Origin: Escherichia coli
GTDB lineage: Bacteria; Pseudomonadota; Gammaproteobacteria; Enterobacterales; Enterobacteriaceae
Length of the DNA stretch: 64,000 nucleotides
NCBI RefSeq assembly: GCF_024223415.1
Contig: NZ_CP100500.1
Direction: 5' to 3' (one strand)
Each line of letters begins with the position of its first letter. The first letter of the stretch is position 1. Positions 10,260 to 42,600 of this stretch are shown in pieces. The position numbers and the translations under genes are program-made. The notes under the pieces are model-generated. The model searched no databases and had not been told where the DNA came from. It was given only the letters and a program-made list of their open reading frames with translations.

Positions 10260-10586
10260 ATGACTAAAAATACTCGTTTTTCCCCCGAAGTCCGTCAGAG
10301 GGCGATTCGTATGGTTCTGGAAAGTCAGGGCGAATATGACTCACAGTGGGCGGCAATTTGTTCCATTGCCCCAAAGATTGGCTGTACACCGGAGACTCTG
10401 CGTGTCTGGGTACGCCAGCATGAGCGGGATACCGGAGGCGGTGATGGCGGGCTCACCACCGCTGAACGTCAGCGTCTGAAAGAGCTGGAACGTGAAAATC
10501 GTGAACTGCGCCGCAGTAACGATATCCTTCGCCAGGCTTCCGCTTATTTTGCGAAGGCGGAGTTCGACCGCCTCTGGAAAAAGTGA
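10260..10586 (+). CDS. IS629 OrfA
   Basis: [59 protein letters not shown]... Confidence 0.9.
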
Positions 10587-18690: not shown

Positions 18691-18869
18691 AGCGTTACAT
18701 TGGCAGCTAAATAAATGCGATGATGCTCGCAAAATCCTTGCCGATCAACCTACCAGATGCGGCGATTCTACGTGGATCGCGATTTAATTATCACTGCCAG
18801 TTATTTGTTCGAAAAGACCATAGCTTTCTATTTATACTCAAGCTTCGCGCCATCAGATAGCTATGTCTT

Positions 18870-19508: not shown

Positions 19509-19552
19509 CATCCGACAGCGCTCGCTTTAATTACATCAAACACACCACAAAC

Positions 19553-19579
19553 CCCACGCTACCTTACCGGTAGCGTGGG
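19553..19579. terminator. Bidirectional stem-loop between convergent genes
   Basis: CCCACGCTACC-TTAC-CGGTAGCGTGGG between the stop at 19508 and the minus-strand stop at 19591. Confidence 0.5.
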
Positions 19580-19590
19580 CCCACTCTCTT

Positions 19591-21270: not shown

Positions 21271-21328
21271 TTCATTACACCTTTTAAAATGGAAAGTGAC
21301 GAATCGGTCTGATTTATAATTTTTTTAA

Positions 21329-22783: not shown

Positions 22784-23194
22784 TCTAAGCAGACTCCGGT
22801 TTGTTTTGTGTAGGTGAAACACTTTCTGACACAGTTGACATGGAAGAATCTATTACGTTTTTAAATTAAGTAATTATGTTTTTTTACTTCTGTGATCCTC
22901 GAAGCAAAGGCCTGTATCACCTGCGTTGAGCCGCCATCCGCCGCTAATTTTTTGGCAGACAGGCAATGTGACAAAACCGGCATTTTAATTCGCTATGCCC
23001 ACCTGAATTCCCCAGGAAGTGTACTCTATACGCGCGCGAAGCGAGATATTTAAAATAGTTTTATTTGCGAGATGGCTCACATTTGAGCATTTTCTCAATC
23101 GCTGAGTGAAATAACGTAATTGAGCAACCGACGATGAGAATACACGATGTGTCACAGTTGTTAATTTTCGGCTTCCTCAATTTCGGAGTTCATC

Positions 23195-24514
<1,320 letters not shown>

Positions 24515-24523
24515 ATTTGGCTG

Positions 24524-24545
24524 ACATGCCCCTGCGGGGGCATGT
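24524..24545 (+). terminator. Stem-loop after xylA
   Basis: ACATGCCCC-TGC-GGGGGCATGT 10 bp after the xylA stop. Confidence 0.5.
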
Positions 24546-24844
24546 ATTCCGCCGTGTGCCCGCTGCCGGGAAATAGCGTTTATTTGTTCGTGTTGTATTT
24601 ATGCTGTCTGTGCCGAAAGGCTATCTGTTTGACTGTCTATAGAGGAACAATCCGCCGCGCGGATGGTTCTGCCATTGTGCCACCTTTTTAATATCAGTGA
24701 GGGAGGGCGAGTAGCGATAATTGTGTAATGCCTCTGTGACCGTACAAAATAAAAAATAATTTGTTCTGATGATAGCGACATATTCTGTCAGCTCAGAATA
24801 GGCTGGTTATTGTCTGAATAAAATTAACCTATATTGAGAAACTC

Positions 24845-25156
24845 ATGACAATGATAAAAAAACTTCCATTAACCATGGCGGTTATCGCCGCGTTTTTTCC
24901 GCTTACCTCTGTAATGGCGCAAGAATTTACTCAGGAACAGATCGACGCCATCGTCGCCAAAGCCGTTGATAAAGCGCTGGCCGAGCAAATTGACGCCTTG
25001 AAAGCCGCCGCCCGTGAATGCGGTCCGTTACCCGATGAGCCGTTTATTCAGATGGCGTTTCTTTCTCTGCCAGTGATCCCCGCGCTGAAACTAACCAGTC
25101 AGGGGCTATTTGATGGCGAGAAGTTTGCCTTCACCACGCTGGAAGTCACGGAATGA
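24845..25156 (+). pseudogene. 5' fragment of a LamB/ScrY-type porin gene fused to unrelated sequence
   Basis: First about 120 bp encode signal peptide plus [22 protein letters not shown], the same as the N-terminus of the porin at 30214; the rest has no porin similarity. Confidence 0.6.
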
Positions 25157-25352
25157 AAAAAAGACCGTATTAGCTGATTTACGGAAAATATGTACTCCAC
25201 AAGCGTCAATATCAGACGAGGCCTGGGAAAAGATAATGTTGTCTGATGAAAGTAATCAGCAGCACATCCGTGAGGCTATTGTGGCGATGGAACGCAATAA
25301 CCAGAACAATTACTGGGAAGCGTTAGGCAAGGTTGAATGCCCGGATATGTAG

Positions 25353-25376
25353 ACGTGAAGCTGCAGCTTCACGTCA
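25353..25376. terminator. Perfect palindrome downstream of the LacI-family regulator gene
   Basis: GACGTGAAGCTGCAGCTTCACGTC 13 bp beyond the regulator stop at 25389. Confidence 0.5.
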
Positions 25377-25388
25377 TACATTTAGCAC

Positions 25389-26345
25389 TTAACGTGAACG
25401 TACATCGGGAATAATTAAATCACCGCGCAGAACATATGAACCCAGCATCGTCTGCGTCTTATCGTTAAGCCAACTGACTATGCGGGCGGCCATTTCGTCC
25501 AGCGAATATTCTATCGCCGGAATGGTCGGTATCCCCGGAAGATGAACAGTACCCGCCAGACTAAATACCATAATGTCCTCAGGAACAGATTTATTAAACG
25601 CCTGCAATTGCGGTATCACCCGCTGCGCTTGCTGTTCATCAGCAACTAATAACGCATTAAAGTTCAGTGTTGAGGCGTTATTTAGCAGCTCCTGCAAAGC
25701 CACTGAGGAAGAGATTGCTTCCATAAAAACCAGATTACGGTTAAAGGGAAGAAAGTTTTTCTCCAGCGCGTGTTTATAGCCCAGTAAGACCTGGTCAGAA
25801 AATCCCATACCGTGTGGGTGGATGAGGGCGATTTGGCGTCTGTTCTGACTTATCAGATAGTTACAAGCGGTTTCAGTCGCGAATGTGTGATCGAACTGAA
25901 TACTGTTAACATCATTACCCGTCTCAAGGCAGTCCACCAGTATCACGTTTTCCTGATGAATATTCAGTGGGAAACGCGCACCAATAATCAGTACGTCATC
26001 ACACAAACCACAGCTCAGCTCATCAAGGGCGTTCTTTACCTCGGCTTTATTGCTGGCGAAGCGAAGAAGTAGATGTTTTTGATGCTGGCTGAGATGTTTT
26101 TCCAGAGCGTAAAGATAACCGGTGGTCTGATTAATGTTTTCCTGAGCACAAATTACACCGATACAGCCCGTAGATTGCGTCAGCAGTGACTGCGCAATGA
26201 CATTGGGACGATAGTTTAGCTCTTCGACGGCTTTCAATACCGCGAGACGGCTGGCTTCTTTAACACCACGCGATCCGCTCAACACCCGAGAAACCGTCGC
26301 TTTTGAAACGCCAGCCAAACGCGATACATCATTGATAGTAGACAT
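25389..26345 (-). CDS. LacI-family transcriptional regulator
   Basis: N-terminal HTH MSTINDVSRLAGVSKATVSRVLSG... and periplasmic-binding-protein-like effector domain; divergent from the PTS operon. Confidence 0.85.
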   Translation of the reverse strand: MSTINDVSRLAGVSKATVSRVLSGSRGVKEASRLAVLKAVEELNYRPNVIAQSLLTQSTGCIGVICAQENINQTTGYLYALEKHLSQHQKHLLLRFASNKAEVKNALDELSCGLCDDVLIIGARFPLNIHQENVILVDCLETGNDVNSIQFDHTFATETACNYLISQNRRQIALIHPHGMGFSDQVLLGYKHALEKNFLPFNRNLVFMEAISSSVALQELLNNASTLNFNALLVADEQQAQRVIPQLQAFNKSVPEDIMVFSLAGTVHLPGIPTIPAIEYSLDEMAARIVSWLNDKTQTMLGSYVLRGDLIIPDVRSR

Positions 26346-26636
26346 CATTCTCCCCTGACAGAGCGGCCCTGGCTCCCACAATCCTGAATTCCTGTTGGCT
26401 TAAATATTAGCCGTTCGCAGTATAACTGTTTCCGTTTTCTAATGGAAACCGATTTTCCATGGCATCTCAAAACTGAGCTAATAATGATAAAAATGTGAAC
26501 AGAGTCGAAATAATAACGCGACTTTATAGCGAAATCTGATAGCCGTCACAGTTTATGTTTCCATGAATGGAAACCGGTTTCCAAATGATATCAAATCAAT
26601 TGCGAAATAGATTTTTACATTCAGAGGATGTGTCAG

Positions 26637-26951
26637 ATGGTCAGGATTATGTTGTGTTGCTCTGCGGGGATGTCAACCAGTCTGCTGGTGAAAAAAATGG
26701 TCGAGGCCGCAGAAAGCAGAGAGCTATCGGTAGAGATAGATGCCTACGGAGTTTCCGAATTTGATATTCAGTTTCCAAAATATCAGGTGGTACTACTCGG
26801 ACCGCAGGTAAAGTATATGTTAAACATGCTCGCAGAAAAGGCCGCCCCCCAGGGAATACCCGTAAAAGCCATTGATATGGCGGACTACGGAATGCAACGG
26901 GGTGACAAGGTGCTGGATTACGCTCTGTCGCTCATTGCAGCGACACATTAA
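26637..26951 (+). CDS. PTS lactose/cellobiose-family EIIB component
   Basis: About 105 aa, MVRIMLCCSAGMSTSLLVKKM... with the active-site Cys motif typical of ChbB-like EIIB. Confidence 0.85.
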   Translation: MVRIMLCCSAGMSTSLLVKKMVEAAESRELSVEIDAYGVSEFDIQFPKYQVVLLGPQVKYMLNMLAEKAAPQGIPVKAIDMADYGMQRGDKVLDYALSLIAATH

Positions 26952-26964
26952 GAAAGGTGTCATT

Positions 26965-28296
26965 ATGAGTTCGTTATATCAATCAATGGTTGCCGTTATT
27001 GAACAATCCATCACACCGCTTGCCGGGAAGCTGGGGCAGCAAAAATATGTGATTGCCATCCGGGACGGTTTTACTGCCGCTCTACCGTTTATGATCATCG
27101 GTTCGTTTATGCTGGTGTTCATTTTCCCACCGTTTTCGGCTGAAACAACCAACAGTTTTGCCCGAGGCTGGCTGGATTTCTCCGCTACCTACCGTGAACA
27201 GCTAATGTTGCCATTTAACCTCAGCATGGGGGTGATGACTTTCTTCATCTCAGTGGGGATCGGTGCCAGCCTTGGGCGACAGTTTAATCTCGATCCGATT
27301 ATGTCTGGCTTGCTGGCATTTATGGCATTTTTACTGGTCGCAGCGCCTTATGCTGACGGCAAAATATCGACTCAATATCTTTCCGGGCAAGGTATTTTCA
27401 CGTCTCTGATTACCGCGATTTATGCCACTCGTGTATACGCCTGGTTAAAACAACACAACGTGACAATCCGCTTACCCAAAGAAGTCCCTACTGGTGTGGC
27501 GCGTTCCTTTGAGATCCTTATCCCGGTTCTGGTGGTCATTGCTACGCTACACCCACTGAATCTGTTTATTGAGGCCCAGACTGGAATGATTATTCCTGAG
27601 GCGATCATGCATCTTTTAGCGCCACTGGTCTCTGCCTCTGATTCCCTGCCTGCAATTCTGCTGTCTGTTCTGATGTGTCAGATTTTCTGGTTCGCAGGTA
27701 TTCATGGTTCACTGATTGTAACAGGCATCATGAATCCCTTCTGGATGGCAAACCTGTCGGCAAATCAGGCAGCTCTTGCCGCTGGCGCAGCACTTCCTCA
27801 CGTTTATCTGCAAGGGTTTTGGGATCACTACCTGCTGATTGGTGGTGTCGGCTCGACGCTACCGCTGGCGTTATTGCTGTTACGCAGCCGCGTTGCTCAC
27901 TTGCGTACCATCGGAAAAATGGGCGTTGTCCCCAGTTTTTTCAACATCAATGAGCCTATTCTGTTCGGTGCGCCGATCATCATGAATCCGATGTTGTTTA
28001 TCCCGTTCGTTTTCGTGCCAATTATTAACGCCATCCTGGCCTATACCGCGACCAGACTGGGCTGGCTGGCACAGGTTGTCTCATTAACGCCATGGTCCAC
28101 ACCTGCTCCAATTGGTGCCTCCTGGGCTGCCAACTGGGCACTTAGCCCAGTGGTGATGTGCATTATCTGTATGGTGATGTCGGCGCTGATGTACCTCCCA
28201 TTCTTGCGCGCCTATGAACGCTCATTGCTGAAAAGCGAAGAACAAAAAGCGCAGGATACCGTCTCCGTGGCCAATGCAGCCCGTAGCAACTCATAA
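26965..28296 (+). CDS. PTS lactose/cellobiose-family EIIC permease
   Basis: 443 aa polytopic membrane protein; RBS AAAGG before the ATG at 26965; ChbC/CelB-like. Confidence 0.85.
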   Translation: MSSLYQSMVAVIEQSITPLAGKLGQQKYVIAIRDGFTAALPFMIIGSFMLVFIFPPFSAETTNSFARGWLDFSATYREQLMLPFNLSMGVMTFFISVGIGASLGRQFNLDPIMSGLLAFMAFLLVAAPYADGKISTQYLSGQGIFTSLITAIYATRVYAWLKQHNVTIRLPKEVPTGVARSFEILIPVLVVIATLHPLNLFIEAQTGMIIPEAIMHLLAPLVSASDSLPAILLSVLMCQIFWFAGIHGSLIVTGIMNPFWMANLSANQAALAAGAALPHVYLQGFWDHYLLIGGVGSTLPLALLLLRSRVAHLRTIGKMGVVPSFFNINEPILFGAPIIMNPMLFIPFVFVPIINAILAYTATRLGWLAQVVSLTPWSTPAPIGASWAANWALSPVVMCIICMVMSALMYLPFLRAYERSLLKSEEQKAQDTVSVANAARSNS

Positions 28297-28316
28297 TGAA
28301 TCAAGGAGTAAGAACA

Positions 28317-29714
28317 ATGAGATACCGTTTTCCCGACAACTTCTGGTGGGGGAGTGCCTGCTCTGCGCTGCAAACCGAAGGGGATAGTCTGAACGGCGGC
28401 AAAAGCCAAACCACCTGGGATGTATGGTTCGAACGCCAGCCAGGCCGCTTCCATCAAGGTATTGGCCCGGCGAACACATCAACCTTTTATCAACACTGGC
28501 AAAAAGATATTGCCCTGCTGAAACAGTTAAAACATAACAGTTTTCGCACCTCGTTAAGCTGGTCTCGCCTGATACCAGACGGTACTGGTGACGTAAATCC
28601 TGAAGCGGTGGCGTTCTATAACAATGTCATCGATGAGCTGCTGGCGCAGGGCATCGCACCGTTTATCACCTTGTTCCACTTTGATATGCCGATGGTGATG
28701 CAGGAAAAAGGTGGCTGGGAGAGTCGGGAAGTCGTAGAAGCTTTTGGTGAATATGCCCGTACCTGCTTTGAACTGTTCGGCAACAGAGTGAAGCACTGGT
28801 TTACCTTTAACGAACCGATTGTGCCGGTAGAGGGCGGTTATTTATATGACTTCCACTATCCGAACGTTGTTGATTTTAAACGTGCTGCGACAGTGGCTTA
28901 CCATACCGTTCTTGCGCACGCCACGGCAGTTCGGGCATTTCGTCAGGGTAATTTTGAAGGTGAAATTGGCGTGGTGCTCAACCTGACGCCTTCTTATCCG
29001 CGCTCGCAAAATCCGGCTGATGTTAAAGCCGCACACTGCGCTGACCTTCTGTTTAACCGCAGCTTCCTCGATCCGGTGCTAAAAGGGGAATACCCGGCAG
29101 ACCTTGTAGCATTACTGAAAGAGCACGATCAGTTGCCGCAATGCCAGCCTGACGATAGTCAGCTAATCGCCGACGGAAAAATCGACCTGCTGGGGATAAA
29201 TTATTATCAACCCCGACGAGTTAAATGCCGGGATAGCGCCGTAAACCCCAATGCCCCCTTTATGCCGGAGTGGTTATTTGACTATTACGAGATGCCTGGG
29301 CGAAAAATGAATCCTTATCGGGGATGGGAAATTTATGAACCCGGTATTTACGATATCATCACCAACCTTCGCGATAATTATGGTAATCCTCGTTGTTTTA
29401 TTTCTGAAAATGGGATGGGTGTAGAAAACGAGCAACGCTTTATTCAGGAAGGGCAAGTCAACGATATCTATCGTATTGAATTTGTCGCTGAACATTTAAA
29501 ATGGCTGCATAAAGGAATTAGCGAAGGGTGTAATTGCCTTGGCTATCATATGTGGACGTTTATCGATAACTGGTCATGGCTTAATGCTTATAAAAATCGA
29601 TATGGATTTGTTCAGCTTGATCTGGAAACGCAAACACGCACGATTAAAAAAAGTGGTGAGTGGTTTGCGACAGTTGCAGAAAATAACGGTTTTGATTGCG
29701 AGAAACAAAAATGA
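28317..29714 (+). CDS. Glycoside hydrolase family 1 6-phospho-beta-glucosidase
   Basis: MRYRFPDNFWWGSACSALQTEG...; GH1 motifs FNEP and ENG present (TFNEPIV, ISENGMG); RBS AGGAG before the ATG at 28317. Confidence 0.9.
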   Translation: MRYRFPDNFWWGSACSALQTEGDSLNGGKSQTTWDVWFERQPGRFHQGIGPANTSTFYQHWQKDIALLKQLKHNSFRTSLSWSRLIPDGTGDVNPEAVAFYNNVIDELLAQGIAPFITLFHFDMPMVMQEKGGWESREVVEAFGEYARTCFELFGNRVKHWFTFNEPIVPVEGGYLYDFHYPNVVDFKRAATVAYHTVLAHATAVRAFRQGNFEGEIGVVLNLTPSYPRSQNPADVKAAHCADLLFNRSFLDPVLKGEYPADLVALLKEHDQLPQCQPDDSQLIADGKIDLLGINYYQPRRVKCRDSAVNPNAPFMPEWLFDYYEMPGRKMNPYRGWEIYEPGIYDIITNLRDNYGNPRCFISENGMGVENEQRFIQEGQVNDIYRIEFVAEHLKWLHKGISEGCNCLGYHMWTFIDNWSWLNAYKNRYGFVQLDLETQTRTIKKSGEWFATVAENNGFDCEKQK

Positions 29715-30013
29715 TCGAACTAGAAGATGCGGTTATGGAAATAATCGTCAATGCCGGCCAGTCACGCAGCCTCTGTTTTGAAGCGTTACACGCGGCACGT
29801 GCCGGGAACTTTGATGAAGCCAAACAGCTGCTACGTGAAGCTGACGGTTATTCGCGTCAGGCTCACCATATGCAAACCAAATTGATCGAACAGGATGCTG
29901 GTGAGGCCCGACAGCCAATGACATTAATTATGGTACATGCACAGGATCATTTAATGACATCAATGCTGGCACGAGAATTAGCAGAAGAAATAATTCATCT
30001 TTATCAAAGATAA
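29711..30013 (+). CDS. PTS lactose/cellobiose-family EIIA component
   Basis: 100 aa helical protein MIELEDAVMEIIVNAGQSRS...; overlaps the glucosidase stop. Confidence 0.8.
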   Translation: MIELEDAVMEIIVNAGQSRSLCFEALHAARAGNFDEAKQLLREADGYSRQAHHMQTKLIEQDAGEARQPMTLIMVHAQDHLMTSMLARELAEEIIHLYQR

Positions 30014-30213
30014 TTGATTAATGCTTATGAGGAACATCTATTTGATAAAATAAAACCTCTGCCTTACCCAAGAATAAAATAGATAAACCACCCTGTTTCG
30101 GTAGTTAAAAATAAGCCGAAACAGGCTGCTTATTATCATAAAACAAATTAATACACACCTTATATTTATTATGCCCAACGCATAATGAATTATAACGTGT
30201 GCGTGAGATAATT

Positions 30214-31593
30214 ATGAAAAAGATAAAAACACTTCCAGTTACCCTGGCGGTTATTGCCGCTTTGTACTCAATATCTGCCCAGGCTCAGGAATTTACTCAG
30301 GAACAAATAGACGCCATTGTGGCAAAAGCCGTCGATAAAGCATTAGCCGAAAGGCAAGAAAAAATGGATGCCGCGGCAGCGAAAAAAGTGGATGTGATTA
30401 ACGAACCGGAAAGTGCTGCGCAGTCTCCGGATATGGCAATTCCCTTTGGCGTGAAATTTAGTGGTTATGCCCGTTATGGGGCTCATTTTCAAAGCGGCGA
30501 TCAAAAATATGTTGCTGTAGACGGCTCCTATAATGGTGCATCTGCAATTGGTCGTCTGGGGAACGAAGGTAATGGCGGAGAGTTTCAGTTATCAAAAGCC
30601 TTCAAGAGCGATAACGGCGCAATCTGGGATGTCAATGTCATGATTGATCACTGGGGCGACGAAGTTAACCTGAAGAAGGCCTACGTCGGCGTCACCAACG
30701 TGCTGGAATCCAATCCCAACGCCTATATCTGGGCCGGCCGCGACTTCCACCAGCGTCCGCAACAGGGGATCAACGACTACTTCTGGATGAACCACGACGG
30801 CCAGGGCGCCGGGGTGAAGAACTTTGATATCGGCGGCGTGCAGTTCGACGTGGCGGCGGTGTCGCAGGTGAAATCCTGTAGCCCGGAAGTGATGGCCGAC
30901 GAGACCAACCCGTCGCGTATCACCTGTACCGGCAGCTCCGACACCGGGGACAACGGCCACTACGCGCTGACCACCAAAACCCACAACATCAAGGCCGGGC
31001 CGATCGACGTCGAGGTGTACGCCAACTACGGCTTTGACTCGAAGGCGGTGGACAGCGACGCGCGTCTCGAAGCCTGGCAGGGCGGCCTGGTGCTGAGCCA
31101 CACCAACGACAGCGGGGTGAACAAGGTGATCCTGCGCTACTCCGATAACTCGGATAACAGCGTCTACAACAAAACCGACGACCTGACCACGGTCTACGCC
31201 AGCTTCGAGGGCAGCCATAAGTTCACCCAGCAGGCGCAGGTGGAATATCTGCTGGCCTTCCACGACTACGACAACGGCAAAGATAATACCGACAACCGCA
31301 AAAACTACGGTGCCATCGTGCGGCCGATGTACTTCTGGAACGACGTGCACTCCACCTGGCTGGAAGCGGGCTACCAGCGCGTGGACTACGACCAGGGCGG
31401 GGATAACCACGGCTGGAAGCTGACGCTGTCGCAGAACATCGCCATCGGCATGGGGCCGGAGTTCCGTCCGATGCTGCGCTTCTACGTGACCGGCGGTCAG
31501 GTGGACAACGAGCATACCGCTAAGGTCAACGGCACCAAAGACCAGCAGCTGGATTCGCTGAACGTCGGCGGGATGTTTGAGGCGTGGTTCTGA
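30214..31593 (+). CDS. Carbohydrate-specific outer-membrane porin (LamB/ScrY/BglH family) with N-terminal coiled-coil extension
   Basis: Signal peptide, coiled-coil [34 protein letters not shown], beta-barrel ending ...GGMFEAWF; the 5' 450 bp are AT-rich and the rest GC-rich. Confidence 0.8.
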   Translation: MKKIKTLPVTLAVIAALYSISAQAQEFTQEQIDAIVAKAVDKALAERQEKMDAAAAKKVDVINEPESAAQSPDMAIPFGVKFSGYARYGAHFQSGDQKYVAVDGSYNGASAIGRLGNEGNGGEFQLSKAFKSDNGAIWDVNVMIDHWGDEVNLKKAYVGVTNVLESNPNAYIWAGRDFHQRPQQGINDYFWMNHDGQGAGVKNFDIGGVQFDVAAVSQVKSCSPEVMADETNPSRITCTGSSDTGDNGHYALTTKTHNIKAGPIDVEVYANYGFDSKAVDSDARLEAWQGGLVLSHTNDSGVNKVILRYSDNSDNSVYNKTDDLTTVYASFEGSHKFTQQAQVEYLLAFHDYDNGKDNTDNRKNYGAIVRPMYFWNDVHSTWLEAGYQRVDYDQGGDNHGWKLTLSQNIAIGMGPEFRPMLRFYVTGGQVDNEHTAKVNGTKDQQLDSLNVGGMFEAWF

Positions 31594-31669
31594 TGCGATA
31601 GCGTTGTCGAAGGAGCGTTCCCGGCTGGCGCTACGCTTAGCCGGGCTACGACTGGTGCGCTCCATTTAT

Positions 31670-31900
31670 GCCGGATGGCGGCATACATGCCTTATCCGGC
31701 CTACGTTTCTGAGGAGGCCTGCGGGATACCCCCCAGGCCCGGCAGGCGCAGCGCCGCCGGGCAGGACACTTCAAGCTCCATACCTGTGGTTGTGCCGGAT
31801 GGCGGCATAAATGCCTTATCCGGCCTACGTTCCTGAGGAGGCCTGCGGGATCCCCTCCCAGGCCCGCGCAAGCGCAGCGCCGCCGGGCAGCTGGCCCAGG
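31670..31900. repeat. Two tandem REP/palindromic-unit-containing repeats (about 125 bp each)
   Basis: GCCGGATGGCGGCATA(C/A)ATGCCTTATCCGGCCTACG... occurs twice (31670.. and 31795..) with about 90% identity between the porin and ybgA genes. Confidence 0.8.
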
Positions 31901-31905
31901 TTCCC

Positions 31906-32865
31906 TCAGTTCACCGTCAGGCGCAGGGCAAGATCCTGCGGGTAGGGGTCAAAATAGTTCTGCGCCTGCAGGTAGCGATCCGGATACTCGGCCAGATAGT
32001 GCTTAAGCAGCGTCAGCGGCGCGAGGATCGGCAGCAGCCCGGCGCGATAGTTGAGGATCACCTCCCGCAGCTCGCCGCGCTGGCGGCTGTTCAGCTGGTC
32101 GCGGAAATAACCCTGAATATGCATCAGCACGTTGGTGTGGTTTTTCCGCGAGGCGGGCCGCTTGAGGATCGCCATCAGCTTTTCGCGATAGACCTCGAAG
32201 AAAGCCTCCAGATCCTCCCATTCATGCAGCGAGGCGACGAAGGGGACGATCTCGCGGTAGCCCGCCTGGTGGTGAGCCAGCAGCTGCAGCTTGTAGCGGC
32301 TGTGAAAGGCCAGCAGGCCGTGGCGGGTCAGGCCGCGGGCGCGCAGGGCGTTGAGTTCATGCAGGGCGAAGACGCGCTCGACAAAATTCTCCCGCAGCAG
32401 CGGATCGTGCAGCCGGCCATCCTCTTCCACCGGAAGCCACGGGTAGCGCGCCATCAGGGCGCCGGTAAACAGCCCCACGCCTTCCTTACGCCCGCGATTG
32501 CCTTTTTCATCATACAGCCGCACGCGCTCCATCCCGCAGCTCGGCGATTTGGCGCAGACGATAAAGCCCGACAGCTCGCCCAGGGTTGCCAGATGGGCGT
32601 TGGCGAAATCGGCCATCTTCTCCGTCACATCCTCGTGCGGGGCGTGGCTGAAGCGCATGCGGATCTCCCCGACCGGGGTCTGCACCAGCCGGAGCGCCGG
32701 GCGGGGAACGGGCAGGCCGATCGCCATCTCCGGGCAGACGGGCTTAAACGCCACCCACTGCGCGAGCTCATCCATCACAAAGCCCATACGCTTATGCCCG
32801 CCGTCGAATCGCACGGCTGAGCCGGTTAAACATCCGCTGATCCCAATGACAGGTTGCGTGTTCAT
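31906..32865 (-). CDS. ybgA: DUF1722-family protein YbgA
   Basis: 319 aa, near-colinear with E. coli YbgA as recalled (...GGHKRMGFVMDELAQWVAFKPVCPEMAIGLPVPRPALRL...SPSCGMERVRLYDEKGNRGRKEGVGLF...). Confidence 0.9.
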   Translation of the reverse strand: MNTQPVIGISGCLTGSAVRFDGGHKRMGFVMDELAQWVAFKPVCPEMAIGLPVPRPALRLVQTPVGEIRMRFSHAPHEDVTEKMADFANAHLATLGELSGFIVCAKSPSCGMERVRLYDEKGNRGRKEGVGLFTGALMARYPWLPVEEDGRLHDPLLRENFVERVFALHELNALRARGLTRHGLLAFHSRYKLQLLAHHQAGYREIVPFVASLHEWEDLEAFFEVYREKLMAILKRPASRKNHTNVLMHIQGYFRDQLNSRQRGELREVILNYRAGLLPILAPLTLLKHYLAEYPDRYLQAQNYFDPYPQDLALRLTVN

Positions 32866-33413
32866 GGCGCTGTCCTCGCTTCTGCTGTGGTTCGGGTAAA
32901 GAAAAGGGTCACGGTGGCCACCGTAATGCCGAATTTCTTCATCTCGGTTTTGTTAAACAAATGGCTGCCGTCCTGCAGGAACATCCAGTCGTCAAAGTGC
33001 AGCAGCCACCGGCTGCCGCTGGCCTCGACGTTCATGCTGTAGCGCCAGTGAAAGGCATTGCCTGCCGCCTGGCCGCTGGCCACGCCTTCGATATCCCCGG
33101 CGGTGCCCTGATAATGGTTATCGCCGGTGCGGCGAATGCGCCACACCCGCTGCTGTTTCTCGCCATCGTCATAGACAAAGCGCTCATGGAGCGTCAGGGT
33201 GTCGCCGACGACGTCGCCATCGATCGCTACATGGAAGCGGCGCAGCTGTTTACCGCGGCGATCCTGCACCATCCCCCACGCCTCGGTTCGACCCTGAAAA
33301 TAGTGGAAGATGTCGAGGGCGGGCTGCTGCTGCCGGTACTCGGTGACCTCGGTGCTGCAGCCGGCGAGCATCAGCATCAGCAGCGCCAGGCCACGGGTCA
33401 GAATGCGTTTCAT
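32862..33413 (-). CDS. Lipoprotein, possibly DUF3833-like
   Basis: 183 aa from the ATG at 33411..33413 with RBS GGAGG; lipobox MKRILTRGLALLMLMLAGCS; the longer annotated ORF 32862..34007 is a GC-rich read-through artefact. Confidence 0.65.
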   Translation of the reverse strand: MKRILTRGLALLMLMLAGCSTEVTEYRQQQPALDIFHYFQGRTEAWGMVQDRRGKQLRRFHVAIDGDVVGDTLTLHERFVYDDGEKQQRVWRIRRTGDNHYQGTAGDIEGVASGQAAGNAFHWRYSMNVEASGSRWLLHFDDWMFLQDGSHLFNKTEMKKFGITVATVTLFFTRTTAEARTAP

Positions 33414-33934
33414 GGTGTACCTCCGATCAACTGCTGACGCAGTTCGGGATAAGTGGTGCGCGGATCGAGCCAGATGGCGAGAAATCGGGTGCTGAACGCC
33501 GCCGACTGGTGCGGGCCGAGCGGGGTAAAGGCGGTCTGCGCGGCGCTGGAGCGGTACCAGAACTGCCCCTCGCCGCCGCTGACCACGAACGCCAGCTGGC
33601 TGCCCGACGCAACGTCCGGCCAGATCCCCTGCAGCATGCGCAGCCAGGCTTCGCTGCGCGGCTCCTGCTGCAGAATGCCCTGCGCCTGCCACTGGTCGCG
33701 GGTGGCCTCCACCAGCGCCTCGCGATCGATGTCGCGCCGGTAGGTGATGATCAGCGCCCGATCCTGCTGCGGGCCGGCATACCGGCCATTGGGCGTGCGC
33801 AGCTGTGAGTGATAGACGGTGAACGGCCCCCAGGTGAGGGTCGCCTCGCCGACGCGGCGCCACGTCAGCCAGTCGGCGGCGTGGGCCGCCGGGGCGAGGG
33901 CGCTCAGCCACAGCAGTAACAGGGCGAATCTCAT
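33410..33934 (-). CDS. Secreted periplasmic protein, possibly chalcone-isomerase-like
   Basis: 174 aa with signal peptide MRFALLLLWLSALAPAAHA; RBS GGGGAGG; stop overlaps the lipoprotein start. Confidence 0.6.
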   Translation of the reverse strand: MRFALLLLWLSALAPAAHAADWLTWRRVGEATLTWGPFTVYHSQLRTPNGRYAGPQQDRALIITYRRDIDREALVEATRDQWQAQGILQQEPRSEAWLRMLQGIWPDVASGSQLAFVVSGGEGQFWYRSSAAQTAFTPLGPHQSAAFSTRFLAIWLDPRTTYPELRQQLIGGTP

Positions 33935-34125
33935 TTTTGCCTCCCCATCCCCAGATGGAACAACAGCATGAGCACCAGCCAGCCGCAGGCCATGGCGGCC
34001 ACGGCAAGCGCCGTCGGTACCAGCAGGGTCACGAACTCCCCCTCTTCGGCGCAGAACGAGATTTCCCTGGCGGCATAGAATTCGCCGAAGGTTTTGGTCA
34101 CCTGTTCCAGAACCAGTTTTGACAT
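33931..34125 (-). CDS. Small membrane protein
   Basis: 64 aa with one strongly hydrophobic segment (VTLLVPTALAVAAMACGWLVLMLLF); stop overlaps the next start. Confidence 0.4.
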   Translation of the reverse strand: MSKLVLEQVTKTFGEFYAAREISFCAEEGEFVTLLVPTALAVAAMACGWLVLMLLFHLGMGRQK

Positions 34126-34340
34126 GAGTCTCTCTTCTATCGGTTAAAAAGATGATTATTAAATTTACATACTAAACATTAAATTTATGTGACACAGATC
34201 CTTAAAGCTAAAAAATGATCTAAATATCAAATTAAAAGCATATAAAACAATGGATTAACCATAAAATAACAAAAACATCTTTCACATTTAAATTTAAGTA
34301 GTAAAGTTAATTACCATCTTACATTCGAGAGGAAAAGAAG

Positions 34341-35171
34341 ATGGCGTTTAACTTTCACCGGGCGGCAGAGGGGATCGTGCTGGCCAACAGCCACCGAGGT
34401 TATTCCAGCTGCGCGCCGGAGAACACATTCCCGGCCTTTGAAGCCGCCCGCCTGGCGGGAACCCACTGTATTGAAATCGATATCCACCTGACGGCGGATA
34501 ACCAACTGGTGGTCACGCACGATCACCGTATCGACCGGGTATCCACCGGACACGGATTTGTGGAGCAGATGACGTACCCGCAGCTGCTGGCGTGCGACTT
34601 TGGCGTGAAATACCATCCGTCGTTTGCCGGAACGCGCATCCCCTTGCTGGCGGACGTGCTGCGCTGGGCGGTGGAAAACAGCATGGGGCTGATTGTTGAG
34701 GTCAAACAGCGCAACCGCCATGACGAGTTTGTGGCGGCGCTGGTTGCACTGCTGCATGAGCATCTGGATGCCCTCGGCCATATCCAGTTGCTGGGCTTCA
34801 ACCATGTGCTGATCAACCGGGTGAAGGCGCAAATCCCGCAACTGGCGTTACAGGTGGTGACGCTGGAGCGCTACAATAACCAGCTTGCGGCGGTACAGCA
34901 GTCCAATGCCGGATGCGTCTGCTTTGAGTTCGAGTTCGCCCATATCGACGACCTGCGGGCCTACAAAAATGCCGGACTGGGCGTGCGGATGTATCTGCAT
35001 GAAATGAAAAACGGCATGACGCCGCTGGAGCAGTACGACTATAAATTCGGCTGTGACAGTCGTCCGGTGATTATCGGCTGGATGCAGGCGGGGCTGATTG
35101 ATATGCTCAGCCACGATGATATTCCGTATTTGCAGGGACTGATTGAAGAAGCAGGCCTGCGCTGGAACTAG
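34341..35171 (+). CDS. Glycerophosphodiester phosphodiesterase family protein
   Basis: 276 aa; GDPD motifs ...HRGYSSCAPENTFPAFEAA...IEIDIHLTADNQLVVTHD... Confidence 0.8.
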   Translation: MAFNFHRAAEGIVLANSHRGYSSCAPENTFPAFEAARLAGTHCIEIDIHLTADNQLVVTHDHRIDRVSTGHGFVEQMTYPQLLACDFGVKYHPSFAGTRIPLLADVLRWAVENSMGLIVEVKQRNRHDEFVAALVALLHEHLDALGHIQLLGFNHVLINRVKAQIPQLALQVVTLERYNNQLAAVQQSNAGCVCFEFEFAHIDDLRAYKNAGLGVRMYLHEMKNGMTPLEQYDYKFGCDSRPVIIGWMQAGLIDMLSHDDIPYLQGLIEEAGLRWN

Positions 35172-35186
35172 AAAAATAAGGACACC

Positions 35187-36299
35187 ATGAACGCCCACTC
35201 TGAACGCCTTGAACTACGTGGTTCGCAGCGCCTGCTGCTGGAACTGATCCGTCTCCACGCCCCGGTGACGCGGGCTGAACTGGCACGGCTGTCGGGACTG
35301 ACGGCGGGGGCGATCACCCAACAGTGCCGAGAGCTGATGTTCTCCGGCCTGGTGGTGGAAGGGGAGCGCAATACCGGGCAGCGCGGCCAGCCGTCGCTGC
35401 CGTTGCGCCTTAACCCCGGCGGCGGTTGTGCTATCGGGTTGTCGTTCAGTCCCGGTTTTATCGATATGACGGTGGTCGATCTCAGTGGTCGCCAGCTGCT
35501 GTCGCTTTGCGAAGCACATCAGGAGAATCAGCCACTGGAGGCCTCTCTCGCGCAGATCAAAACCTTGGTGGAGAAAATGCTGAAAAAGCGCCAGCTCCAG
35601 CACGCACGTATTCTCGGCATTGGCTATGCAGTGCCCGGATTTCTGAAAGCGGATGGTCGCAAGCGCCACAGCGTACCGTGGCTGGAGAGCTGGCGTGAGG
35701 TAGATCTCCAGCAGGCGTTTGCCGACAACCTGCCGTGGCCGACGTGGGTGGAAAATAATGCCAACGCCTCGGCGGTAGGTGAACTGTACAGCGGCAAATG
35801 GAATGCGTACAGCGATCTAACCTTTATCGACCTTGGCTACGGTATCGGCGCGGGTATTATCTCCGGGAATAAAATGCTACGCGGCGGGTTCTGCAATGCC
35901 GGTGAAGTCGGGATGGCGTTTCCATCCGGTACACCGCGCCCGTCGTATAAGGATTTGCTTGCCACACTGGAGCGTGAAGGATTCAGTGAAACTAAGCTAC
36001 CGGAGCTGATAGCCGGGCAGCACCCACTGCTGGAAAGCTGGTTTGAACGCTGTCGTGGCCAGGTGGAGCAGACGCTCTTCAGCTGTGTGCAGTGGGTAGA
36101 CCCGCAAATCATCGTACTCGGTGGCGCGATGCCGAAACCAATTATCAGTCGTCTGGTGCAGGAACTGAATCAACTGATGGAAGCCTGCCTCGATCCCAAC
36201 CGCCCCAGAGTGAAGTTAGCTGCCTCTTCGATGGGAGCACAGAGTGCGTCATGCGGCGCGGCGATGCTCCCGTTGTATAAGGTGATTAATAATGGATAA
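35187..36299 (+). CDS. ROK-family transcriptional regulator (NagC/Mlc-like)
   Basis: 370 aa; N-terminal HTH (...LIRLHAPVTRAELARLSGLTAGAITQQCRELMFSGLV...) plus sugar-kinase-like fold. Confidence 0.8.
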   Translation: MNAHSERLELRGSQRLLLELIRLHAPVTRAELARLSGLTAGAITQQCRELMFSGLVVEGERNTGQRGQPSLPLRLNPGGGCAIGLSFSPGFIDMTVVDLSGRQLLSLCEAHQENQPLEASLAQIKTLVEKMLKKRQLQHARILGIGYAVPGFLKADGRKRHSVPWLESWREVDLQQAFADNLPWPTWVENNANASAVGELYSGKWNAYSDLTFIDLGYGIGAGIISGNKMLRGGFCNAGEVGMAFPSGTPRPSYKDLLATLEREGFSETKLPELIAGQHPLLESWFERCRGQVEQTLFSCVQWVDPQIIVLGGAMPKPIISRLVQELNQLMEACLDPNRPRVKLAASSMGAQSASCGAAMLPLYKVINNG

Positions 36300-37104
36300 G
36301 AAGTTATGTGATTGTTGCTTCTGAAAGTGATATTTTATGTTGTTAAAATGTAAAGTAATAATACAATGAGCTATCCATGATGGGGTTCTGTAAATAAACA
36401 AAACACTCTCTTCAATTCTGCTCACCTTCGGTATTTGTGTATCATCACTGGCTACTGATAAAAACAGAACCGTCAGTTTTCCACGATGTGAAGGGCAGGA
36501 ATCATCGGCTGTTGCAGCCAGCGTCAAACGGGACTATCTCCAGAAACAGGTGCTTCACTGGAAAGATGACTAGGTGATCTTCAGTCAGCAGCATCCTGTT
36601 GTCTGGGTGAATCTTCGTGAGCTGGTAAGTAAAAGTGATAATTTAGTCACAGTGCATCTCACCGCCCGGGGGAAGAAAGCCGATATTCAGTATCGGGTGC
36701 GCATTGACTGTAAGAACGAAAACGCTATCTGGCAGCGCCAGAGATGAACGTATGGAGATAATCACAGAGTATGAACAAAAGGACTCTACATGTTCATTAT
36801 GACTAAAAAACGCTGTTTTATTTTACGTTGCTGTCATAACGTGTTTATCTCAATTTTCGGGAACATGTTCTTAGCGGTTAGACTGGCCCCCTGAATCTCC
36901 TGCGTTTGAAGGACAGTAACAGGTTAAGTGATAACAGATGTATGAAAATATAGAGATACATCCAAGGAAGAGCCACTTTTGCGCCGTTCGTGACAGTTTT
37001 GTCATGTCCTTGCTCCGGCCTGGTTTTATGTTCATAAGTCCTTCTTCACCAGTATCTTTGTAAACCTTCACCCAGTGCCAGATAATGGTTTCATTTGATA
37101 TATT

Positions 37105-39668: not shown

Positions 39669-42600
39669 ATGAATAAAGTTTATTCCCTTCGCTACAGCGC
39701 TGTGGCCCGGGGCTTTATTGCTGTATCTGAGTTTGCGAGGAAATGTGTTCATAAGTCTGTCAGAGGCCTGAGTTTTCCGGTTTTATTACTGTCCCCCGTA
39801 CTTTTCTCTACAGGAGGCCTTGCGGGAACAGTCAATAATGAACTTGGCTATCAGTCATTTCGTGATTTTGCTGAGAATAAAGGTATGTTCCGCCCGGGAG
39901 CAACGAATATCGCCATTTATAATAAGCAGGGAGAGCTTGTCGGCACGCTGGAAAAAGCGGCTATGCCGGATTTCAGTTCCGTAAATTCAGGAAACGGTGT
40001 GGCGACACTAATTAACCCGCAGTATATCGCCAGCGTGAAACATAACGGGGGATATACAAACGTCAGCTTTGGTTATGGTGAAAGCCGTTACAATATCGTG
40101 GACCGGAATAATGCGGCGTCACTGGATTTTCATGCTCCCAGACTGGATAAACTGGTGACAGAGGTTGCCCCGGCTGCGGTGACGGCGCAAGGGGCAGTGG
40201 CTGGCGCATATCTGGATAAGGAACGTTATCCTGTTTTTTATCGTCTTGGCTCCGGAACCCAGTATATTAAGGACAGTAACGGACAGCTGACACAAATGGG
40301 AGGAGCATATTCCTGGCTGACTGGCGGGACTGTCGGTAGTCTGTCATCCTATCAGAATGGAGAAATGATTAGCACCAGTTCAGGTCTGGTTTTTGATTAC
40401 AAACTTAATGGTGCAATGCCCATTTATGGCGAGGCCGGTGACAGTGGTTCGCCTTTATTTGCTTTTGATACTGTTCAGAATACATGGGTTCTTGTTGGTG
40501 TTCTCTCTGCGGGGAATGGAGCGGGGGGCAGGGGAAATAACTGGGCTGTTATTCCACTGGATTTTATCAGACAAAAATTTAATGAGGACAATGATGCCCC
40601 GGTCACATTCAGAACATCGGAAGGTGGTGCGCTGGAGTGGGGCTTTAACAGCAGCACCGGAGCTGGCACGCTGACACAGGGAACCACCACATATGCCATG
40701 CACGGGCAGCAGGGAAATGACCTGAATGCCGGTAAAAATCTGATATTTCTGGGACAGAATGGACAGATTGACCTGAAAGACAATGTTGCACAGGGGGCAG
40801 GTTCTCTGACATTCCATAATGATTATACGGTTGCAACTTCAAACAACAGTACCTGGACCGGTGCCGGTATTATTGTGGATAAAGGCGTGTTCGTAAACTG
40901 GCAGGTTAACGGTGTTAAAGGCGATAACCTGCATAAGATTGGTGAAGGTACGCTGACGATACAGGGCACGGGTATCAATGAGGGTGGTCTGAAGGCCGGG
41001 GACGGAACCGTTGTTCTGAAACAGCAGGCAGACAGTAACGGGCAGGTGCAGGCCTTCAGTAGTGTGAATATTGCCAGCGGACGACCGACAGTAGTGCTGA
41101 CTGATGACCGGCAGGTAAATCCGGATAACATCTCCTGGGGATACAGGGGAGGTATTCTGGATGTTAACGGTAATGATATTGGCTTTCACGAAATAAAGGC
41201 GGCAGATTATGGTGCTCAAATCCACAATGGCAGTAACAAAAATGCAATAATCTCTCTGGTTATGCATGATGCCATTAAGTGGACCGGGAAAGATACACCA
41301 AGAATTTTAGGTCGGGTTTATGAGTATTTCAATGATGAAACGCAGAAGACTGAATTCTTTATATTAAAAACCAGCAGTATTGCGTGGTCTCCTTCGCCTG
41401 GAGAAAAATTTTTTCCGGATATGTTCAGAGGTGCTGATTATTTTAATACTCTTGAGGATGCGGACAAAGAGGCCAGAAAAAATACACAATATATTTTCCA
41501 TGGTAAATTAACCGGTAATATCAGTTTTAACCCGAAGAGTGCCGGTACGTTTGTTATGGATGGTTCTGCTGATATGTCCGGAACCTTCACCCGGGAAAAC
41601 GGGCGTCTGACACTGCAGGGTCATCCGGTTATCCATGCATACAATACACAGTCTGTGGCTGACAAACTTGCTGCCAGTGGAGACCATTCGGTTTTGAATC
41701 AGCCCACGTCATTCAGTCAGGAGGACTGGGAGAATCGCAGTTTTACCTTTGACAGACTGTCACTGAAGAACACCGATTTTGGCCTTGGCCGTAATGCCAT
41801 GCTGAACACCACGCTTGAAGCAACAGATTCGACTGTCACACTGGGCGACAGCCGGGTCTTTATTGACAAAAACGACGGTAACGGTACGGCTTTTACGCTG
41901 GAAGAAGGCACATCAGAAGCGGTGAAGGATGCAGACCGTAGCGTGTTTAATGGCAGTGCTGTTCTGTACGGGAAGACGACGCTGGATATCATGAACGCAA
42001 CCTTTAATGGTGATATCAGCGGTCATGCCGGCTCGCATGTGGAGTTGTCGCGCCGGAGTCACTGGAATATGACGAAAAGCTCCACGCTGGATTCGTTCAG
42101 AAGCAAAGGCGGGACGCTCTCCTTTGTGACAGACAACTGGTCGCCGAAAACGCTGACGGTAAACACACTGCATGCCAGCAGTATGAATATCGCCATGGGG
42201 GTCAGCACCGCCGACAACACGGGCGACCGGATTGATATCCTGAATAAGGCAACGGGGGGACATAACACACTGGACCTGTCCTCCCTGTTTGATCAGACTG
42301 TCACACTGAAAAATGACCTGACTCTGGCATCTGCACCGGTCGGAACTTCTCACGGGTACTTCTCCTTTGCCAGCCTGAACAGGGGGTTTACTGTTTATAC
42401 CCCTGACACACAGGTGCAGGAGAAAGACGGCAGAGTTTACTGGCAACTGAAAAATAACGCTGGTCTGGCGGACTCACAGGCACAACCGGTATCGGAAAAT
42501 GAAATCCGGATGGTTGCGGCGGATGGTGATAGTGGTAACAACCGCGCGGATGAATCTGGTTCCGCTGTTTCCGGAAAGAACTCAGAGGTTACCGTGAAAG

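Follow-up and report, generated by a model that had tools for sequence, protein, structure and literature searches.

In E. coli the gene ybgA lies immediately upstream of the photolyase gene phr, as an earlier note on this DNA correctly stated. In the 64-kb stretch of DNA analysed here (the window), a gene that also bears the RefSeq name "YbgA family protein" is followed instead by REP repeats and a porin gene, and the note proposed that it belongs to a photolyase-associated cluster from which phr had been lost or replaced. Is this locus such a remnant, or does it have another origin? The evidence presented here makes it very probable that positions 31906–34125 are what remains, at the 3′ end, of an operon conserved in enterobacteria, captured in an E. 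coli-type mosaic island. The identity, origin, boundaries and intactness of the locus, and the recurrence of its arrangement, are documented in turn below.

Results

The gene at 31906–32865 (minus strand) is intact and encodes a protein of 319 aa in which Pfam finds two domains on the same polypeptide: an N-terminal 2-thiouracil desulfurase/DUF523 domain (PF04463, residues 7–149, E = 6.6e-39) and a C-terminal DUF1722 domain (PF08349, residues 192–309, E = 6.5e-39). The protein also matches TudS (6Z92) in a phmmer search (E = 3.1e-5). In alignment with the TudS motifs ACL, CPE and SPSCG it has Cys12, Cys44, Cys110, Glu46, Ser107 and Ser109, and Arg55 was seen directly in the translation, so the three conserved Cys ligands of the [4Fe-4S] cluster are all present, together with the catalytic Glu (Cys+2), two Ser (Cys−3 and Cys−1) and Arg. 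Judged by its sequence, this is a full RudS-type protein, in which DUF1722 is joined to a TudS domain of the [4Fe-4S] desulfidase type.

RudS is a [4Fe-4S] desulfidase that turns tRNA 4-thiouridine (s4U) back into uridine, and removal of tRNA s4U has been demonstrated for six orthologues (PMC11417400). The closest of these to the window protein is probably the Salmonella one. Both RudS_ST (Salmonella LT2 STM1389/ORF319) and RudS_KT (P. putida PP_0741) share its two-domain architecture (PMC11417400), and RudS_ST is likewise 319 aa long, with identical positions for Cys 12/44/110 and for the catalytic residues (Glu, two Ser and Arg); the cluster cysteine numbering is that given for RudS_ST in PMC11417400 (Table 1). 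A 319-aa Salmonella enterica homologue is 84% identical to the window protein and K. pneumoniae proteins are 98% identical.

E. coli YbgA (b0707) shares with the window protein the RefSeq label and DUF1722, the half to which their 50% identity, across 152 residues, is confined. In contrast to the 319-aa, TudS-containing window protein, it is a 169-aa stand-alone DUF1722 protein with no desulfidase domain, it has no effect on s4U (PMC11417400), and its gene is co-oriented with and overlaps phr, whereas the window gene has no phr. The window protein scores 196 bits against the NCBIfam YbgA equivalog NF007549 (PRK10167), below the cut-off of 237. From domain content and identity we classify it as a paralogue of E. 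coli YbgA. A tblastn search with E. coli K-12 Phr found no photolyase homologue in the 64 kb (best E = 0.8). Of the 5426 complete E. coli genomes, 5422 have the canonical ybgA–phr pair, and at most four of the 24 records that carry the island fragment in the complete E. coli genome collection could be without it; its presence in the window's own genome is an extrapolation from E. coli in general. Thus the finding that the earlier note had named as fatal to its proposal, phr elsewhere beside a second ybgA, is what E. coli generally shows.

Upstream of the RudS gene the note had placed three small secreted or membrane proteins, of which two are real genes. At 32862–33413 (minus strand) lies a gene for a 183-aa DUF3833 lipoprotein (PF12915, E = 1.3e-64), with the lipobox LAGC seen in the translation. 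The protein is intact and exactly as long as its counterparts in Klebsiella and on E. coli islands, and its gene has ATGA overlaps at both ends, with the upstream stop and with the RudS start. The gene at 33410–33934 (minus strand) encodes a 174-aa protein with an N-terminal leader that resembles a signal peptide, as read from the translation rather than called by a predictor. Pfam gives it nothing at E ≤ 0.01; Chalcone_3 (PF16036) matches at E = 0.023 with 15.2 bits, against a cut-off of 27, and is matched weakly by 26 of 26 homologues as well. An AlphaFold2 model (mean pLDDT 87.8, pTM 0.82) matches chalcone isomerase (CHI), CHIL and the fatty-acid-binding protein FAP3 in a Foldseek search of the PDB (E 1e-6 to 1e-4, TM 0.56–0.66), and the predicted structure has the open beta-sandwich of the CHI type. 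The protein has 264 homologues, and those listed and named are all from Enterobacterales. No NCBIfam model matched either this CHI/FAP-like protein or the DUF3833 protein.

The third protein was misassigned: the 64-aa ORF at 33931–34125 (minus strand) is an in-frame chimera. Compared with an intact 355-aa ABC-transporter ATPase and an intact 161-aa DUF2878 protein, it joins residues 1–35 of the former, ending just short of the Walker A motif, to residues 133–161 of the latter. A three-way DNA alignment assigns 34125 to ~34021 to the first 35 ATPase codons and ~34020 to 33931 to the final 29 DUF2878 codons and the stop, which is the native DUF2878 stop and overlaps the start of the next gene. 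NCBIfam ABC-ATPase models cover residues 1–39 of the chimera only. The join has the form of an illegitimate-recombination junction at 34010–34031, where Klebsiella-type homology, which stops at 34031, overlaps that to an E. coli ABC/GDPD/ROK/SPATE module, which begins at 34010. The shared core, AGCAGGGTCA, encodes TLL on the minus strand and amounts to ~10 bp of microhomology; because it lies in the same frame in both genes, the fusion is in frame.

Beyond the chimera, 34126–34340 is in sequence a divergent AT-rich intergenic region between the ABC-transporter and the GDPD–ROK module, and three other records show the same arrangement with the ATPase intact. It would be the only candidate promoter region remaining upstream of the truncated operon. 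A simple scan of 31500–34400 found no minus-strand sigma-70 consensus in this region and no convincing terminator after RudS, a null result that is uninformative on expression.

The full nine-gene operon, a putative stress operon, is found in the K. pneumoniae chromosome, Citrobacter braakii and Serratia fonticola. An MlrA-type MerR regulator is followed by genes for SnoaL, SDR, FAD amine-oxidase-like, DUF1365, CMAS, DUF2878, CHI-fold and DUF3833 proteins and, last, RudS; Enterobacter carries the operon without RudS. Its final three genes and the end of DUF2878 stand in the same order as in the window, with stop/start overlaps kept, and the three C. braakii proteins are 69–87% identical to those of the window. 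The enterobacterial operon differs in having the regulator and the first five genes. In tblastn searches of the whole window, only DUF2878 residues 129–161, the CHI-like protein, DUF3833 and RudS found matches, while the C. braakii regulator, SnoaL, SDR, amine oxidase, DUF1365 and CMAS proteins had none at E ≤ 1e-3. The window thus retains the final three genes with 29 codons from DUF2878 and has lost the regulator and the five and a half genes that open the operon, which makes the locus an operon fragment, not a member operon.

By Pfam family and from the literature, the middle enzymes of the full operon (amine oxidase, DUF1365 and CMAS) appear to be the counterparts of UfaD, UfaO and UfaM in the synthesis of furan fatty acids (UfaD and the DUF1365 protein UfaO, PMC7380195). 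With neither the regulator nor any of the first five genes in the window, this putative lipid-modifying chemistry cannot be encoded there. Related domain content is seen in the R. sphaeroides ufaD/ufaO operon (RSP1091-1087) and in the Pseudomonas pmlR1/phrB/ufaM region, which runs phrB-LitR-SDR-oxidoreductase-UfaM (PMC9758184); phrB is included in the Pseudomonas version but absent from the enterobacterial operon. RudS-type genes have been reported in light-responsive operons, some with a photolyase (PMC11417400; Pseudomonas pmlR1/phrB region, PMC9758184). The Pseudomonas-type LitR–PhrB–RudS operon has an adjacent phrB and a class II LitR, whereas the window has neither phr nor an MlrA/LitR-like gene. 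The operon to which the window-type RudS natively belongs has a MerR/MlrA-type regulator, an arrangement also reported for RudS_ST; unlike RudS_ST, the window copy is severed from the MerR-type regulator and from any light-responsive context and lies behind an ABC-transporter 5′ stub.

No phr lies within ~10 kb of the operon in K. pneumoniae (where tblastn agrees), C. braakii or S. fonticola. In K. pneumoniae, phrB is found at the kdp/ybfA-phrB-dtpD locus, some 940 kb distant, and no ybgA precedes it there. The synteny comparison with Klebsiella that the note had proposed thus finds RudS unlinked to phr and phrB at a locus of its own, and the losses from this source-lineage operon were the regulator and five and a half genes, not phr.

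The segment that carries the three genes is foreign, and the note's description of a different, GC-rich version of a ybgA-type gene is borne out: 3.35 kb at 64.0% GC, against 50.6% for the whole window and 45–47% in the immediate flanks. It is ~96% identical in DNA to K. pneumoniae strain 176, which points to Klebsiella-type chromosomal DNA as the probable donor, with strain 176 itself only ~96% identical. In all, the Klebsiella-type DNA comes to 9.6 kb. Outside 18710–24984 and 30680–34031 the window matches E. coli islands at 99–100%; the backbone was compared with E. coli GF60 islands, and the island modules are 99.5–100% identical to E. coli records. A tRNA scan found no tRNA gene in the 64-kb window, so no attachment site is visible.

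On the left, the segment begins within a full-length LamB-family carbohydrate porin gene (30199–31593, plus strand; Pfam LamB, E = 3.7e-74) that is convergent with RudS and is itself chimeric. Its 5′ third is of the type found in the PTS operon of the E. coli adeD/uhpT locus and its 3′ two-thirds are of Klebsiella type. Sliding identity to an E. coli adeD/uhpT-type record is 98–100% up to ~30600 and falls to 64–85% from ~30700, from where to the stop codon at 31593 identity is 99–100% to an island copy and 95–100% to K. pneumoniae. The crossover at ~30650–30700 coincides with the left edge of the GC-rich segment, where GC content rises from 0.39–0.49 to 0.61. From the porin stop codon to that of RudS there are 312 bp, and this spacer holds two tandem REP/BIME-like units (31666–31890), direct repeats spaced 124–126 bp apart. 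Within the window the core motifs GCCGGATGGCGGC...CCTTATCCGGCCTAC occur only in these two units, at 31670/31794 and 31690/31814. Rfam returned two sub-threshold matches to the REP-derived naRNA4 and no structured RNA in 30000–36500. Here the earlier gene calls hold, with an intact ybgA-family ORF followed by REP repeats and a convergent porin. The porin-REP-RudS order is present in the K. pneumoniae chromosome too, with a shorter spacer (183 bp) whose match to the duplicated stretch of the window is broken.

At least 24 public contigs, drawn from several NCBI and SRA assemblies that are independent of one another, carry the identical 64-aa chimera with the same neighbours. One variant of the chimera does not have the PTS insertion, so the junction preceded that insertion. 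In the complete E. coli genome collection no genome spans the 34010–34031 junction, and truncated versions that keep RudS are present in 24 records of that collection and on more than 100 Klebsiella-group plasmids. These other copies break inside the DUF3833 or CHI-like gene, at window-equivalent positions 33120 and 33474–33477. They include a lacIZY-porin-RudS-DUF3833′ passenger fragment, found on large Klebsiella-group plasmids and in tRNA-Leu islands of a few E. coli, that shares its porin-REP-RudS-DUF3833 DNA with the window at ~97% identity on the plasmids and 99.7% on the E. coli islands. The passenger fragment ends earlier (at 33477 beside IS5, at 33474 or at 33120), whereas the window copy reaches 34031 with its unique ABC-ATPase junction.

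Discussion

We propose the following history for the locus. A Klebsiella-type chromosomal fragment would have been taken into an E. coli-type mosaic genomic island, where it replaced a sodC–ABC-transporter module beside an IS3. Its right break would be an illegitimate join at ~10 bp of microhomology that put the last 29 DUF2878 codons in frame behind the first 35 of the ABC ATPase. The genes for the CHI-fold protein, DUF3833 and RudS would have been kept intact with their ATGA overlaps, and the regulator, promoter and lipid-modifying enzymes lost. Later, homologous recombination inside the porin gene would have inserted a copy of an E. coli PTS beta-glucoside-type operon on the other side. Any transcription of the three genes would now start at the ABC-transporter promoter. 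In that case RudS would be a light-independent s4U eraser in a species otherwise without one, and the two envelope proteins would be passengers without their pathway.

Loss or replacement of phr, by REP repeats and a porin, from a GC-rich variant of the ybgA–phr photolyase cluster is very improbable as an account of the locus. It draws on the K-12 order, with ybgA directly upstream of phr, on the lack of phr in the window, and on the RudS genes reported beside phrB in Pseudomonas (PMC11417400; PMC9758184). However, K. pneumoniae has the same porin-REP-RudS order as the window, the operon is without phr within 10 kb in Klebsiella, Citrobacter and Serratia alike, the K. pneumoniae phrB sits at a conserved locus without ybgA, and the window protein, only 50% identical to an E. 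coli YbgA whose pairing with phr is retained in 5422/5426 genomes, has an extra TudS domain. Least probable of all, to the point of being negligible, are an assembly artefact at the junction and a window that is native Klebsiella chromosome. GC content does change abruptly at both segment edges, and among complete E. coli genomes none contains the junction. Yet the same chimera and neighbours recur on at least 24 contigs from independent assemblies, a recurrence on which an assembly chimera is rejected, and ~10 bp of microhomology is too short for mis-assembly; the flanks match E. coli islands at 99–100%, not the 34-kb Klebsiella locus compared, and a native Klebsiella window is rejected since these flanks are E. 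coli island DNA.

A less remote but still unlikely alternative is that the three-gene tail is a selected, functional mini-operon, its translational coupling preserved by the in-frame fusion, which supplies a useful s4U eraser and envelope proteins from the ABC-transporter promoter. The three ORFs are intact with their ATGA overlaps, the in-frame fusion runs to the native stop, which overlaps the start that follows, at least 24 contigs retain the arrangement, independent truncations keep RudS (24 records in the complete-genome collection and over 100 Klebsiella-group plasmids), and RudS_ST expressed in E. coli lowers s4U 18-fold (PMC11417400). Against this, an in-frame outcome is a one-in-three chance; the differing cut points of other copies in DUF3833 or the CHI-like gene are expected for hitch-hiking with sugar genes; near-identical copies suggest recent spread, not long retention; and the simple scan showed no minus-strand sigma-70 consensus in 34126–34340. 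More doubtful again is the idea that the microhomology fusion rewired RudS, in a virulence-type island, from a MerR/MlrA-type regulator (elsewhere light-responsive) to the promoter of a glycerophosphodiester/ROK-associated ABC transporter. Were it true, carriers would have constitutively or nutrient-dependently lower tRNA s4U8, with altered near-UV growth delay and an altered stringent-response trigger, and selection for this effect would lie behind the recurrent hitch-hiking of RudS on the lac plasmids of Klebsiella.

On the preferred reading, a captured operon end, both the family and the operon are known, the mosaic island is ordinary, and the locus is a usual outcome of horizontal transfer in which nothing points to a system of a new kind. 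Under the RefSeq name "YbgA family protein" stand two things, the inert DUF1722-only phr partner of E. coli and a complete RudS desulfidase, and it is this sharing of one name by two different proteins that makes synteny carried over from E. coli misleading here. As an example of mosaic-island construction the locus is clean and datable: a microhomology decapitation kept the reading frame, and a homologous crossover in the porin gene followed. A predicted tRNA s4U eraser, normally absent from E. coli, is present in a few E. coli and on many Klebsiella-group plasmids and, if expressed, RudS could modestly alter the tRNA thiolation and near-UV physiology of its carriers.

Results

Four closely packed minus-strand ORFs fill 31906–34125. 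A 64-aa ORF, a chimera of an ABC ATPase and a DUF2878 protein, comes first and is followed by a 174-aa protein (33410–33934) with a signal-peptide-like N-terminal leader, a DUF3833 protein (E 1e-64) with the lipoprotein signal MKRILTRGLALLMLMLAG/C and, last, a 319-aa protein (31906–32865) combining an N-terminal 2-thiouracil-desulfurase/DUF523 domain with a C-terminal DUF1722 domain (both E ~1e-39). ATGA stop/start overlaps lie at 33931–33934, 33410–33413 and 32862–32865; the DUF3833 gene really begins with the ATG at 33413, which has GGAGG in front of it. A 312-bp spacer 3' of the last gene holds two tandem REP-containing units, beyond which lies a convergent LamB-family porin gene (30199–31593, plus strand). 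GC content is 64% in the segment versus 50.6% in the whole window and 45–47% in the immediate flanks, and tblastn with the E. coli K-12 photolyase across the 64-kb window found no photolyase (best E 0.8). The earlier note had described this arrangement accurately (ybgA-type gene, REP repeats, porin, high GC), except for one of its three small upstream secreted or membrane proteins: the third is the ATPase/DUF2878 chimera.

As the earlier note said, K-12 ybgA (b0707) lies immediately upstream of phr, which it overlaps. K-12 YbgA is a 169-aa stand-alone DUF1722 protein, to which the window protein is just 50% identical, over its DUF1722 half, and the window protein falls short of the NCBIfam YbgA equivalog cut-off. 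RudS, a TudS–DUF1722 fusion, strips 4-thiouridine from tRNA with a [4Fe-4S] cluster on three cysteines; E. coli has an inactive DUF1722 stub only, without RudS, and Salmonella RudS is under a MerR-family regulator (PMC11417400). The positions of Cys12, Cys44 and Cys110 of RudS_ST (Salmonella ORF319, 319 aa; PMC11417400) are identical in the window protein, and the catalytic Glu51, Ser111, Ser113 and Arg60 of RudS_KT are its Glu46, Ser107, Ser109 and Arg55. Judged by its architecture, the product of the window "ybgA" is a predicted RudS, not E. coli's YbgA. Homologues of equal length and 81–98% identity occur across Enterobacterales. In Salmonella enterica GCA_016412015.1 a solitary homologue (10001–10960 of the extracted locus), 84% identical to the window RudS, lies 780 bp from ttcA (PF01171 tRNA 2-thiocytidine synthetase family) and dbpA, so that a tRNA thiolase gene adjoins a tRNA desulfidase gene. 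The E. coli CFSAN06176x plasmids (~115 kb) carry a second, different YbgA-family gene, with which the window RudS shares 79% of its nucleotides over 980 bp.

From the porin interior to 34031 the window is ~96% identical in DNA to the K. pneumoniae chromosome CP125156.1. This record is listed in PLSDB as "plasmid unnamed2" of strain 176, but its size (5.37 Mb) and its kdp, cus, phrB and similar genes identify it as a chromosome filed as a plasmid. There xylA and the porin are followed, on the opposite strand, by RudS, DUF3833, the 174-aa protein, DUF2878, a CMAS-type methyltransferase, DUF1365, an FAD amine-oxidase-like protein, an SDR and SnoaL, and an MlrA-type MerR regulator and divergent lipocalin precede the operon. 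In the locus inspected (487858–522259) the CMAS-type gene (18784–20003) and the MlrA-like regulator (23362–24090) both appear frameshifted. Citrobacter braakii and Serratia fonticola have the same nine-gene operon with its regulator; an otherwise identical operon in Enterobacter hormaechei stops at DUF3833 and lacks RudS, making RudS a variable terminal cistron. The amine oxidase, DUF1365 and CMAS proteins are counterparts, by domain family only, of UfaD, UfaO and UfaM, the enzymes with which Rhodobacter makes methylated furan fatty acids as part of its sigmaE/ChrR singlet-oxygen regulon (PMC7380195).

Pfam and NCBIfam returned no match for the 174-aa protein. Homologues number 264; among those listed, nearly all are annotated hypothetical and the named organisms are all Enterobacterales. 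Each of the 26 homologues tested gives a weak hit to Pfam Chalcone_3 (best E 1.6e-5), whose threshold the window protein itself does not reach (E 0.023). In the PDB, the AlphaFold2 model of the window protein (pLDDT 87.8, pTM 0.82) hits chalcone isomerases, CHI-like proteins and FAP3, a fatty-acid-binding protein of Arabidopsis (E 1e-6 to 1e-4, TM 0.56–0.66). An envelope-exported CHI/FAP-like protein would fit a lipid-handling role beside Ufa-like enzymes.

Window-wide tblastn with ten Citrobacter proteins detected only RudS, DUF3833, the 174-aa CHI-like protein and DUF2878 residues 129–161. The three complete genes are intact, with lengths as in Klebsiella; RudS has 19 synonymous and 3 non-synonymous codon differences from K. 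pneumoniae, DUF3833 has 14 and 5, and the CHI-like gene has 7 of each kind.

The earlier note's central claim was that phr had been lost or replaced. Photolyase genes are absent within ~10 kb of the operon in the K. pneumoniae, C. braakii, S. fonticola and E. hormaechei loci, and K. pneumoniae phrB lies ~940 kb away, at the conserved kdp–ybfA–phrB–dtpD site. The 182-bp gap upstream of that phrB (CP125156.1 1444267–1445638) contains no ybgA, so the ybgA–phr pairing does not extend to Klebsiella; in E. coli K-12 (739001–740925) the DUF1722-only ybgA overlaps phr in the same kdp/dtpD neighbourhood. Of the 5426 complete E. coli genomes, 5422 have the canonical pair. The claim of loss or replacement is wrong; the enterobacteria from whose lineage the segment came never had phr in this cluster. 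What stands of that interpretation is a foreign, GC-rich, different ybgA-type cluster. A related region in Pseudomonas also bears phrB and a LitR regulator (PMC9758184; PMC11417400), which gives the phrase "photolyase-associated cluster" a distant basis.

On the right, Klebsiella homology ends at 34031, and from 34010 onwards the DNA matches an island module of E. coli. In this module the genes for sodC, SBP, two permeases and an ABC ATPase are divergent from GDPD, ROK, yebF', abgT and an S6-peptidase autotransporter. Three-way alignment places the switch of parents at the common AGCAGGGTCA, and the 64-aa ORF joins ATPase residues 1–35 (...EFVTLL), ending just before the Walker A motif GPSGCGKT, to DUF2878 residues 133–161 (VPTALAV...GRQK); NCBIfam ABC-ATPase models cover its residues 1–39 only. 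The microhomology at the junction is the TLL codons common to both parents. The fusion is in frame and terminates at the native DUF2878 stop, overlapping the next start codon. The junction is not spanned by any of the 5426 complete E. coli genomes, but at least 24 contigs, which come from several independent assemblies, encode an identical chimera between the same neighbouring genes; the junction is therefore real and circulating. At 34014–34019 (GGTACC) two positions differ from both parents. Neither change alters an amino acid of the Klebsiella DUF2878 (CTG GTA versus CTT GTG); together they create a KpnI site and most likely reflect donor-strain variation.

On the left, sliding identity of the porin gene to ~30600 is 98–100% to the porin of the PTS operon at the E. 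coli adeD/uhpT locus, and from ~30700 to the stop it is 99–100% to the island copy of E. coli GF60 and 95–100% to K. pneumoniae. This switch, which coincides with the GC jump, and the end of homology at 34031 delimit a GC-rich Klebsiella-type segment of ~30680–34031. At 24835–24984, 150 bp from the 5' end of the Klebsiella-type porin gene survive as a stub. That porin is interrupted at 24975–31593 by a copy of the PTS beta-glucoside/cellobiose-type operon of the E. coli adeD/uhpT locus (yicS', LacI-family regulator, IIB, IIC, GH1, IIA, porin; ~99–100% identity across most of the operon), and the outcome is a chimeric, full-length porin. A sister contig with the same 64-aa chimera is without the insertion; its Klebsiella-type 460-aa porin lies directly beside xylA, so the junction is older than the PTS-operon insertion.

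The window backbone is the 925–986 kb island of GF60. In the window, the stretch from an IS3 to ATPase codon 35 has given way to a fragment with genes for a restriction endonuclease, HNH, GH43 and MFS proteins, xylA, the porin and RudS. The phosphorothioated-DNA-binding restriction endonuclease and HNH endonuclease pair (17821–19508) and a 1274-aa S6-family (SPATE) autotransporter protease beside abgT (39669–43493) are typical avian or extra-intestinal E. coli island content.

Twelve records in the collection of complete E. coli genomes contain shorter passenger copies, which stop at window-equivalent 33474 or 33120. On more than 100 mostly Klebsiella plasmids with lacIZY the end point is 33477; in pABW_S38a, the plasmid inspected, IS5 lies beside it. 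pABW_S38a and ~105 others, large and mostly conjugative plasmids of Klebsiella, Raoultella, Enterobacter and E. coli, carry lacIZY, porin, RudS and DUF3833.

Discussion

The earlier observation was largely correct overall. RudS, its operon and mosaic-island formation are all already known, and the novelties are local ones, namely the exact junction and the porin crossover. RudS and the two envelope-protein genes are intact, cut off from the regulator, the promoter and the enzymes of their operon, and directly preceded by the 5' end, ribosome-binding site and AT-rich upstream spacer of the ABC-transporter gene. A simple promoter scan gave no consensus on the minus strand. Any transcription of the three genes would start at the captured ABC-transporter promoter, and the in-frame stub would let ribosomes terminate at the native overlap, coupling into the next gene. 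The pathway that the CHI-fold and DUF3833 proteins formerly served would now be gone. Carriage on lacIZY plasmids means that the tRNA s4U desulfidase gene is spread widely together with the plasmid lac operon, on which it is a passenger; in the window, RudS, if expressed, would desulfurise tRNA s4U8 independently of the original MerR/MlrA control.
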